Position numbers and translations under genes: made by a program. Under the pieces are notes generated by a model. It was not told where the DNA came from. It saw only the letters and a list, made by a program, of their open reading frames with translations, and ran no database searches. From assembly GCA_963740355.1 (NCBI GenBank), contig CAVUDW010000003.1, positions 960,001 to 1,024,000 of the forward strand: a DNA stretch of 64,000 bases. The letters run 5' to 3'. The DNA comes from an uncultured Gemmatimonadaceae bacterium. GTDB taxonomy: Bacteria; Gemmatimonadota; Gemmatimonadetes; Gemmatimonadales; Gemmatimonadaceae. Shown one piece after another: positions 60,510 through 61,847 of this stretch. Each line of letters opens with the position of its first letter. Positions within the stretch are counted from its first letter, which is position 1.

Positions 60510-60542
60510 CAAAAGCGAAACGCAGAGTAGCTGTGTTGAAAG

Positions 60543-61478
60543 TCAAGCCGTGGCGGGCGTGGGTGCCCGCCACGGGGTTTGTGTTTTGACCATCGCGTTG
60601 AGGATGGTGAGGAGGCGGCGGAGGCACGCGATCTTGGCGACTTTGGTGGGCTTCCCGGCGGCGCGCAGCGCCGCGTAGACGGGCTGAAGGACCGGGTTCC
60701 ACCGGGTGGCGACATGGGTGGCCATGTAGAGGATTGAGCGAATGGTCGCGCGTCCGCCCCAGCACACGCGGGCGCCGCGGAACTGCCCGGATTCCTGCGC
60801 GAGCGGCGCGACGCCCACGAGCGCGGCAATGGCGCGCCGATTCAGCGTCCCCAATTCGGGCAACAAGGCGACCAAGTACCGTGCGCTCTGCTGGCCGATG
60901 CCCGGCACGGTGGTCAACAGCGTCACCTGCGCCTGCCAGGCCGCATTCTGTTCGATCAGGCCACCGATCTCGTCATCGATGTCGCGCAGCGCCTCCGCCA
61001 GCGCCTCCAACGTCCGGCGCACATTCGTCGCCACGCGCGCGGTCGCGACGTGCAGGCGATTCTTCTCCATCGTCTGCATGGTGACCAATTGCCGTCGCCG
61101 TTCCACCAAGGCCGCCAGCGCCTGCCGCTCCGCGTCGGCGAGCGGCCGGACGGGTGGGGCGAGCACGGCGCCAAACCGCGCCAGAATGCGCGCATCGACG
61201 CGATCCGTCTTCGCCAACTGGCCGGTGCTGCGCGCGAACTCGCGCACCTGCCGCGGATTGACGACCGCGACGGGGATCCCGGCGCCGGTGAGCGCGCCGG
61301 CGACGGCGCGATGATACGTGCCCGTCGCTTCCAGCACGACCAAGGTCGGGGGCTGCGCGGTGAGCGCGGTGACGAAGGCGTCGATGTCCGCCGCCGTATT
61401 GCGGAGCTGCGTCACCGCGCCGTCGTGGACCGCCACATCCAAGTGGGCCTTGCTGACATCAATGCCGAGATACGTCAT
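60543..61478 (-). CDS. IS110 DEDD recombinase/transposase (311 aa)
   Basis: GIDVSK, VVLEATG, KTDRVD (DEDD), VPGIG, QESG (catalytic Ser); GGAGG RBS before ATG 61478. Confidence 0.96.
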
Positions 61479-61494
61479 ACTGCCTCCAGGTGAC

Positions 61495-61660
61495 GACCGC
61501 GCGCGCCCTGCCTTGCGAGATGCGGGATCGCGTGGGCGTCCCTGGTAGCTGTCCGGGCTTGTAGCGATCGGGACGACGGCGCTCTGACTCTGCGACGGGC
61601 TCACGGCGCCCGGGGCGCTCCGAACGAGCTGCCGCCGTCCCGGAGATTTAGCTTCTGTGC
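61495..61660 (-). ncRNA. Predicted bridge RNA (target-binding loop 61570-61641, donor-binding loop 61505-61558); ends approximate
   Basis: Two internal-loop hairpins whose loop segments match the element's own target and donor sequences (see findings). Confidence 0.82.
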
Positions 61661-61675
61661 GAGGAGACATACAAG

Positions 61676-61847
61676 GCGCAGAGGCTTCTACAACTAGGTC
61701 GAAAACATTTGCGGTAGGAAATTCAGACGGCTTGTGAAACTGCACTTGCGTGAGCAGTTCCCCAAGCCGTCTGCAGTTTCTACTTCGCCACTAGTCGCCC
61801 AGCAGATCGACAACCTCTGCGCCTTTGCGTCTCTGCGTTTTGCCCTT
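61676..61847. repeat. REP-like inverted-repeat element interrupted by the IS (left arm split between 60511-60527 and 61676-61684; right arm 61814-61847)
   Basis: Reconstituted left arm AAAAGCGAAACGCAGAGGCGCAGAGG versus reverse complement of right arm AAGGGCAAAACGCAGAGACGCAAAGGCGCAGAGG. Confidence 0.8.

Follow-up and report, generated by a model that had tools for sequence, protein, structure and literature searches.

An IS110-family insertion sequence at the unit junctions of a host octamer repeat in a Gemmatimonadaceae genome, with guide sequences in its predicted bridge RNA

The subject of this analysis is an insertion sequence (IS) of the IS110 family that lies downstream of the gamma-glutamyltranspeptidase gene ggt in an uncultured Gemmatimonadaceae bacterium. 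The window, which is the whole stretch of DNA that was analysed, comprises 64,000 nucleotides (assembly GCA_963740355.1, contig CAVUDW010000003.1, positions 960,001 to 1,024,000) and corresponds to C3:960001-1024000 of a genome (G000) of 5 contigs and 5.45 Mb; coordinates without a contig name are those of the window. The ggt gene (plus strand) and an open reading frame (ORF) of 471 amino acids (aa; minus strand) converge on the intergenic region that carries the IS (Table 1). The ggt stop codon TGA occupies 60507-60509 and the repeat unit that was struck by the IS begins 11 nt beyond it, with caaaagcGAAACGCAGAG running downstream of the TGA up to 60527 and the IS110 element commencing at 60528. 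On the plus strand the element starts with TAGCTGTG and ends with CATACA at 61673, which is followed by AG at 61674-61675 and by GCGCAGAGG at 61676-61684. Deletion of 60528-61675 in silico yields GAAACGCAGAGGCGCAGAGG; in other words, removal of the IS together with one CT joins GCGAAACGCAGAG to GCGCAGAGG directly after the ggt stop. The sequence CCTCTGCGCCTTTGCGTCTCTGCGTTTTGC at 61814-61843, located 129 nt past 61684, is an imperfect reverse complement of the left arm that is restored in this way. An earlier note on this DNA had claimed both that the empty ggt site can be reconstructed and that it has an inverted partner about 130 bp away between convergent genes, and both claims are confirmed. 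The precise insertion of an IS110 element in a repeat is likewise confirmed and goes far beyond chance.

The 311-aa ORF of the element is matched by the profiles PF01548 (N-terminal DEDD RuvC-like domain; residues 4-143, E 4.1e-26) and PF02371 (C-terminal transposase domain; residues 186-268, E 1.2e-15), and it aligns over its full length with the transposases of ISCro4 (9t56, E 1.3e-34) and IS621 (8wt6, E 5.8e-32). Only 15 nt separate the recombinase stop codon from the element end. The genome contains seven copies of the element, each of 1146 bp and with an intact ORF. Five copies are identical, one has 21 differences and the window copy has 44 differences from the five. Of these 44, the ORF accounts for 43 and the 195-nt left end (LE) for 1, against an expectation of about 7.5 from its length. 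The five identical copies suggest a recent burst, with the window copy being the most diverged. Read in the orientation of the recombinase, all seven copies have the form ..GCGC-CT-TGTATG....CAGCTA-CT-CTGCG.., with GCGCCT as the constant left flank and CTCTGCG as the constant right flank in 7/7 copies and with sequences that diverge beyond about 10-20 nt. These outer flanks differ in sequence and are still repeat arrays, and by a strict rule six of the seven copies have an adjoining in-phase CTCTGCG unit. On the left of the seventh (C3:1514560) the repeat continues for just 8 nt until it meets the end of an rve-type (IS3-like) element, and array sequence is present on the other side. The other copies therefore sit in like sites and not in unrelated sequence. 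The absence of terminal inverted repeats and the presence of CT on both sides of all seven copies, with a single CT in an empty site at C2:5040-5041, are traits of the IS110 group.

Table 1. Features of the ggt locus, of the IS110-family element and its left end, and of the surrounding host repeat. Positions are those of the window except in the last row; LE positions count within the left end.
Feature	Coordinates	Strand	Remarks
ggt (gamma-glutamyltranspeptidase)	58644..60509	+	PF01019, E 6.6e-155
Left repeat arm, outer part	60515..60525	-	CTGCG 60521-60525 is the right target (RT), then TTTCGC; from sequence
Core dinucleotide CT, right-hand copy	60526..60527	-	From sequence
IS110-family insertion sequence, 1146 bp	60528..61673	-	No terminal inverted repeats
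Recombinase/transposase ORF, 311 aa, intact	60543..61478	-	PF01548 + PF02371
G+C-rich terminator-like hairpin in 3' end of ORF	60548..60575	.	Then GGTTTGTGTT on + strand; consensus scan only
LE non-coding region, 195 nt, predicted bridge RNA	61479..61673	-	Structured core about LE 32-170
Right donor guide core, CAAG	61512..61515, LE 159-162	-	Inside conserved GCAAGG; reverse complement of CT+TG of left-end tip
Left donor guide, ACAGCUACC	61544..61552, LE 122-130	-	Equals right-end tip ACAGCTA + C
Right target guide, CGCAGAG	61588..61594, LE 80-86	-	Reverse complement of CT+CTGCG
Left target guide, GCGCCC	61613..61618, LE 56-61	-	Same sense as GCGC + C of left target + core
Core dinucleotide CT, left-hand copy	61674..61675	-	From sequence
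Left repeat arm, inner part	61676..61684	-	CCTCTGCGC; GCGC 61676-61679 is the left target (LT)
Host composite repeat centre, 129 nt	61685..61813	.	Long hairpin 61717-61781 (CAGACGGCTTG..GAACTGC / GCAGTT..CAAGCCGTCTG)
Right repeat arm, unbroken	61814..61843	+	CCTCTGCG CCTTTGCG TCTCTGCG TTTTGC; belongs to dispersed family
Convergent gene, 471-aa ORF	61867..63282	-	No Pfam family; adjoins ggt in 9/11 congeneric loci
Composite repeats with conserved centres (L116-L123)	C3:1345750-1346330, C3:2522200-2522800, C3:631250-631750, C3:2561850-2562250 of G000		

An occupied and an empty allele of one site were obtained at a sister locus. The occupied allele is a 668-nt contig of metagenome run X1 that links the left end of the IS to 162 nt of flank, of which the 30 letters shown are the reverse complement of C2:5002-5031. 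The genome itself has the empty allele, GTTGTAGTT-CTCTGCGC-CT-CTGCGACACTGCG, with no IS and a single CT, and C2:5032-5046 reads CTCTGCGC-CT-CTGCG without interruption. This occupied/empty pair at C2:5041/5042 consists of one junction and has exactly the breakpoint that is predicted by the insertion model. Additionally, a 151-nt contig of run X2, which is from a different study, covers 60491-60641 with 0 differences and represents the same ggt/IS junction, and loose contig ends in runs X13 and X3 represent further IS copies beside ..CTCTGCG.. flanks. The empty allele at ggt is predicted to read GCGAAACGCAGAGGCGCAGAGG. Neither of the two refuting checks named in the earlier note told against its idea: the other copies share their type of site, and for the empty allele it is the sister site, and not ggt itself, that provides alleles which read as predicted. 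Orthologues of ggt with 76-85% DNA identity are present in 18 congeners; the nearest genomes are other species with at most 85% identity, and their ggt intergenic regions are unalignable with that of the window. The 11 congeneric ggt loci are all devoid of the IS, with four having a plain 100-150-bp spacer, six having arrays downstream of ggt and one ending at the ggt stop. Three of the six array-bearing loci (L027, L028 and L032) exhibit inverted arms and a hairpin that are built from other octamers, for example CGCAAAGG. As judged from DNA, the convergent 471-aa ORF has a Gly/Ala/Pro-rich N-terminal part.

It could be argued that the shared flanks are part of a longer mobile unit with CTCTGCG-type termini, or that the copies were spread by segmental duplication or by homologous recombination between arrays, given that flank identity runs for 9-20 nt in most copies and that arrays are abundant enough to support recombination. 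We consider this very improbable, as identity between copies falls abruptly outside the arrays and as uninterrupted arrays with the same 11-mer, GCGC-CT-CTGCG, are present at at least 20 loci. Furthermore, on the side seen, what distinguishes the two alleles at C2:5041/5042 is exactly the 1146-bp unit, and relatives of the element that have quite different flanks still have TGTAT... and ...ACAGnnn tips in common.

The repeat into which the element is inserted is built from the octamer CCTCTGCG. Exact CTCTGCG pairs occur in the genome 45 times at a spacing of 8 nt, twice at 9 nt and never at 7 nt, so that the 9-nt CGCAGAG periodicity claimed in the earlier note has to be replaced by a period of 8 nt. 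These exact spacing counts are used in place of a looser definition of arrays, with up to 1 mismatch per unit, that gave 212 runs versus 11-173 for permuted units. Further unit types, among them the 6-nt GCCGTT and the 16-nt CAGTTCTGCGGCTGTT, occur alongside the octamer. The 62 pairs of arrays that lie within 700 bp of each other comprise 47 in (-,+), 7 in (-,-), 6 in (+,+) and 2 in (+,-) orientation, and inverted pairing is the rule. Among 40 inverted pairs with spacers of 60-420 nt, at least three classes of conserved centre can be distinguished: a hairpin of about 130 nt (TTTGGGAACTGC..GCAGTTCCCAAA), a module of about 200 nt that is found in either orientation (..GGCAGCCAGC..GGGGAACTGCGCTCGC..CCGCCGCCAAAGGCGTC..) and a module of 215-390 nt with the end ..TCCAAGGCCCTTTACCAAAGCAGTT. 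Judging from its sequence, the centre in the window looks like a variant of the hairpin class. Its long hairpin has only weak miRNA-like matches in Rfam, with the same class of centre being present at other loci, and an Rfam search of nine host repeat loci gave no match. Of the 20 genomes that represent the genus, five, G000 among them, have tandem CTCTGCG frequently (45, 31, 24, 18 and 15 matches), compared with 0-5 matches in the remaining congeners and at most 2 in other genera. A second IS type also sits in the arrays, since ends of the rve-type element are found inside them at two spots. One such end (..TAGGACTAGACA) is separated by 8 nt from one IS110 copy, on the side of its left end, and the same end recurs within array sequence at a distance of about 250 bp from another copy (near C2:320400-320650); a gene for an IS3-like transposase with an rve domain is located at L007:2712-3422 (C3:1515771-1516481).

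The non-coding LE of the element provides candidates for the sequences that select the target. In IS621, the left target guide (LTG) reads in the same direction as the left target and core and the right target guide (RTG) is the reverse complement of the core plus right target; the left and right donor guides (LDG and RDG) do likewise for the element ends, and a promoter spans the junction of right end (RE) and LE in the circle (PMC11208160). We aligned the LE of the window element with those of 18 relatives (36-60% aa identity), and the consensus fold of these 19 sequences consists of two stem-loops with internal loops and comprises 25 pairs, compensatory changes being present in 14. An Rfam search of the LE matched no family. 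Within the 15 nt that follow the 5' strand of the first stem, 17 of 24 non-redundant elements have an exact copy, 5 nt or longer, of part of the left flank of the same element, a feature seen in 20 of 490 cross-pairs of elements that served as control. The RTG and LDG counts cover the 13 elements for which a right end was located. In 10 of the 13, a run of 5 or more nt is complementary without a gap to the element's own core-adjacent right flank (cross-pair control 2/154), and the LDG equals the element's right-end tip at 7/7 positions in 11, with three triplets (CTA, TCG and TTG) being represented. The CAAG of the RDG is invariant in 19/19 aligned LEs and is beyond covariation testing because it never varies. 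At the guide positions the window element has GCGC+CC (56-61), CGCAG+AG (80-86), ACAGCUA+CC (122-130) and CAAG (159-162). These sequences therefore specify GCGC-CT-CTGCG, in agreement with what is invariant in the seven junctions, and the constant right-junction CTCTGCG is complementary to the RTG. The view that the element is "programmed" against the repeat is supported by these guides, whose positions were set by covariation.

Two variants of this guide analysis were rejected. UACAAG at LE 111-116 had been a candidate for the RDG; it lies in the linker between the stem-loops, is not conserved in relatives and was replaced by CAAG at 159-162. An LTG statistic that demands a full CT suffix fails where the guide has no T, and shared targets contaminate its control. 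A candidate junction promoter consists of TTGACT in the RE tip, where it overlaps the stop codon, a spacer of 17 nt and TATGTC in the LE tip, and agrees with the consensus at 8 of 12 positions. A similar RE-LE arrangement is present in three relatives, one of which was trimmed one base too far and displays a 16-nt spacer; across 4/4 elements 8-9 of 12 positions agree, and all of these are consensus matches only.

Taken as a whole, we regard it as highly probable that this is an active IS110-group element that is bridge-RNA-guided, with the LE RNA specifying GCGC-CT-CTGCG in host octamer arrays. The DEDD/serine recombinase would mobilise the 1146-bp element under guidance of the bridge RNA, whose loop for binding the target would specify the 11-bp site. 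Such a site would arise at every tandem pair of CCTCTGCG octamers, and the arrays would constitute a genus-restricted dispersed repeat with inverted arms round terminator-like hairpins between genes. By homology with IS621, the element presumably excises as a circle in which the RE-LE junction promoter (TTGACT, 17 nt, TATGTC) is rebuilt and drives the bridge RNA, and strand exchange presumably occurs at the CT core.

Alternatively, target choice might depend chiefly on the protein, or on a DNA structure such as a cruciform or long palindrome that the inverted arms create, with RNA complementarity being secondary or coincidental. There is some basis for this idea as a partner arm lies 130-1520 bp away on the LE side in 6/7 copies, the LTG pairing of the window element is just 4-5 nt and a target stem-loop is reported in a preprint to add specificity for ISPpu10 (10.64898/2026.03.19.712850). 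It is nevertheless improbable, since guide positions covary with flanks among relatives that have unrelated targets, matches of a 7-mer RTG and an 8-mer LDG are unlikely to arise by chance in a 195-nt RNA, and copy C3:1514560 retains its junctions though its inner side is now an rve-type IS.

Relatives of the element were also compared with respect to guides and flanks. A sister element with 60% aa identity from another Gemmatimonadaceae metagenome-assembled genome (MAG) has the same RTG and is located at CT-CTGCGG or CT-CTGTGG in similar arrays, with left flanks that vary (GCGGC, GCGAC and GTGTC). IS110 relatives with 50-51% aa identity in congeners G001, G005, G010 and G012 do not have an array target at the loci considered (L126-L129 and L132; matches in G019 and second matches in G001, which are L130, L133 and L134, were left out). 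At four of these loci (L127, L128, L129 and L132, in congeners G001, G012 and G005) guides and flanks agree on about GCTGC-CT-AACAC and there are no octamer arrays, and at L126 no LE motif was found. Observations in other phyla are that IS110 relatives likewise sit in host repeats. In a Dehalococcoidia MAG the copies (L047, L049, L050, L052 and L053) are in one arm of a palindrome, GTCAGAAGCAGGATT...AATCC-CT-GCTTCTGAC, that contains many GGATT units, and in a Binataceae MAG the copies (L063 and L066-L068) are beside GCGAAACCCACCGTGGGTTTCGC hairpins.

The distribution of the IS among congeners also bears on whether the octamer arrays were partly made by the recombinase, which could add or remove units by target-by-target or half-match recombination such that the IS shapes its own landing pads. 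The insertion site is exactly a unit junction, and half-match recombination by bridge recombinases is reported in a preprint (10.64898/2026.08.31.748434). We give this scenario very little weight, as congeners G002, G019, G004 and G005 have 15-31 tandem CTCTGCG pairs and lack this IS. The identity of the IS110 relatives found in G005 and G019 is only 46-51%, the one that was read in G005 targets GCTGC-CT-AACAC, and arrays are also built of units that are unmatched by the guides (GCCGTT and CAGTTCTGCGGCTGTT).

Several observations weigh against this guided-insertion account. The evidence base is DNA sequence, consisting of the genome assembly and metagenome contigs. No contigs that skip the IS at ggt were found in metagenome runs X1, X13, X2 and X3, and the empty ggt allele was not found among the 11 congeneric loci. 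Run X1 may also be the source sample of the genome, in which case the insertion at the sister site would be a population variant and not an independent strain. The single-sequence LE fold is modestly better than shuffles (z -2.3) and pairs GCG at 56-58 with CGC at 80-82, which is guide against guide. The LTG pairing is short, with 4 nt plus the first core base, and neither LTG nor LDG matches the second core base, as both have CC where the core is CT. In the window and sister elements the 5' side of the loop is 3-4 nt longer than in other relatives, and the register there is consequently less certain. With regard to target sites, the exact 11-mer GCGC-CT-CTGCG has 32 free, uninterrupted occurrences versus 13.5 expected from base composition; 29 perfect ones are unoccupied, plus three that adjoin occupied ones, and 12 of the 32 are outside arrays by a neighbour-unit rule. 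The same rule places 20 of the 32 in period-8 arrays, with 2 more placed there by eye.

These counts also address the suggestion in the earlier note that the element uses dispersed host repeats as safe harbours. The repeats are indeed used by 7/7 copies; for random insertion among 39 sites the probability that all seven are in arrays is about 0.06, which is a marginal excess over what the choice of sequence by itself would produce. The pattern can therefore be accounted for by sequence choice together with selection against insertions in genes, so that the "safe harbour" part can only be put forward with caution. The LE faces the central hairpin and, as described above, the partner arm is on the LE side in all copies but one. 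This landing orientation, with the LE towards the central hairpin and the recombinase gene pointing outward against the neighbouring gene, is fixed because the site is asymmetric. In such an orientation no host promoter reads the recombinase gene in the sense direction, which agrees with the notion of a landing place that is quiet and harmless. The hairpin in the 3' end of the recombinase ORF looks like a terminator for transcripts that arrive from ggt, as suggested by the consensus scan. A strand bias of the copies was considered and dismissed: all seven are on the same contig strand, yet are 5:2 relative to replication, because GC skew gives C2 and C3 opposite polarity. Skew is mainly positive on C2 and mainly negative on C3, and each contig measures about 2.55 Mb, as would be seen if the pair represented both replichores of a single chromosome.

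The host repeat had been described as a REP-like palindromic repeat, and this description stands only in part. Like repetitive extragenic palindromic sequences (REPs) and the bacterial interspersed mosaic elements (BIMEs) that they compose, the arrays are extragenic (as judged from context without gene calls), dispersed over tens of loci, arranged in inverted or alternating arms and often positioned at the 3' ends of convergent genes. In contrast to the palindromic 20-40-nt unit of REPs, the unit here is an 8-nt direct tandem repeat, CCTCTGCG, and palindromy exists only between arms that are 60-420 nt apart. Furthermore, neither of the two genes in the genome with a Y1_Tnp domain (PF01797), at C2:1530270-1531071 (L114) and C3:374468-375194 (L115), is adjoined by CTCTGCG arrays as would be the case for the cognate REP-associated tyrosine transposase (RAYT). 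The RAYT-like gene at L114 is instead flanked by two upstream and three to four downstream copies, in inverted orientation, of another palindromic repeat, GATCAAGGGGTCAGAGATCTTGATC. This gene and its repeat look like the real REP/RAYT pair of the genome.

A literature search on such octamer repeats or on IS110 elements in Gemmatimonadetes found nothing, which is not proof of absence. One tentative interpretation, which we think is possible and less likely than not to hold in full, is that the landing pads are a previously undescribed class of genus-restricted composite intergenic elements in which inverted short-unit arrays surround at least three central modules, with unit sequences that drift between species. 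A Gemmatimonadaceae IS110 lineage would then have remodelled its target-binding loop (short LTG, 5-nt RTG and extra loop bases) such that every octamer junction became a site, and IS and repeat would be associated across genera, as the 60%-identical sister element has the same guide and target.

Comparison with characterized systems places the element close to IS621 of E. coli, which inserts into REPs (PMC11208160, citing Choi et al. 2003). Both have the same two Pfam domains, a CT core, no inverted repeats and an 11-bp target, and in both (structures 8wt6-8wt9) an LE-encoded RNA has LTG/RTG followed by LDG/RDG in the same 5'-to-3' order. They also share insertion in a dispersed extragenic repeat, and the candidate promoter of the present element, a consensus match only, resembles that of IS621 in having its -35 box on the RE side of the circle junction and its -10 box on the LE side. 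Unlike IS621, where the guide split is 7+2+2, the split here is 4+2+5 (an LTG of 4 nt plus core and an RTG of core plus 5 nt) and neither LTG nor LDG pairs with the second core base. The element is also shorter, at 1146 bp with 15 nt after the stop codon, its target is a tandem 8-nt unit junction and not a REP hairpin, and its host is a member of the Gemmatimonadaceae. We take ISPpu9, ISPa11 and ISPsy8 to be IS110-family members. Together with ISPpu10 these are REP-specific IS elements (PMC1525189), ISPpu10 being an IS110 element whose REP target has a stem-loop (10.64898/2026.03.19.712850). As in these four, every copy of the present element is in one conserved intergenic repeat; theirs is a canonical REP with a stem-loop by the site, whereas here the hairpin is tens of nucleotides off and the unit is non-palindromic. 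Members of the IS1111 group have a long non-coding region after the ORF, unlike the 195-nt non-coding region here which is 5' of the ORF. Elements of that group, which use a seekRNA, have the same recombinase type and RNA-guided target choice, and differ from the IS110 type in possessing subterminal inverted repeats (PMC11187229).

Insertion of IS110 elements in REPs is already well known, and the present element adds an example with a different guide split, size and kind of repeat; the genus-specific architecture of the host repeat may be the less well described part. Its value is as a well-documented case of natural bridge-RNA targeting outside the Proteobacteria, based on seven insertions, an occupied/empty pair and covariation between guides and flanks among relatives. 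The predicted 4+2+5 guide split and unpaired second core base on the same scaffold should be useful for mining natural bridge recombinases. Finally, a tandem octamer junction as target widens the range of host repeats that are used by IS110 elements, with the principle of targeting being unchanged.

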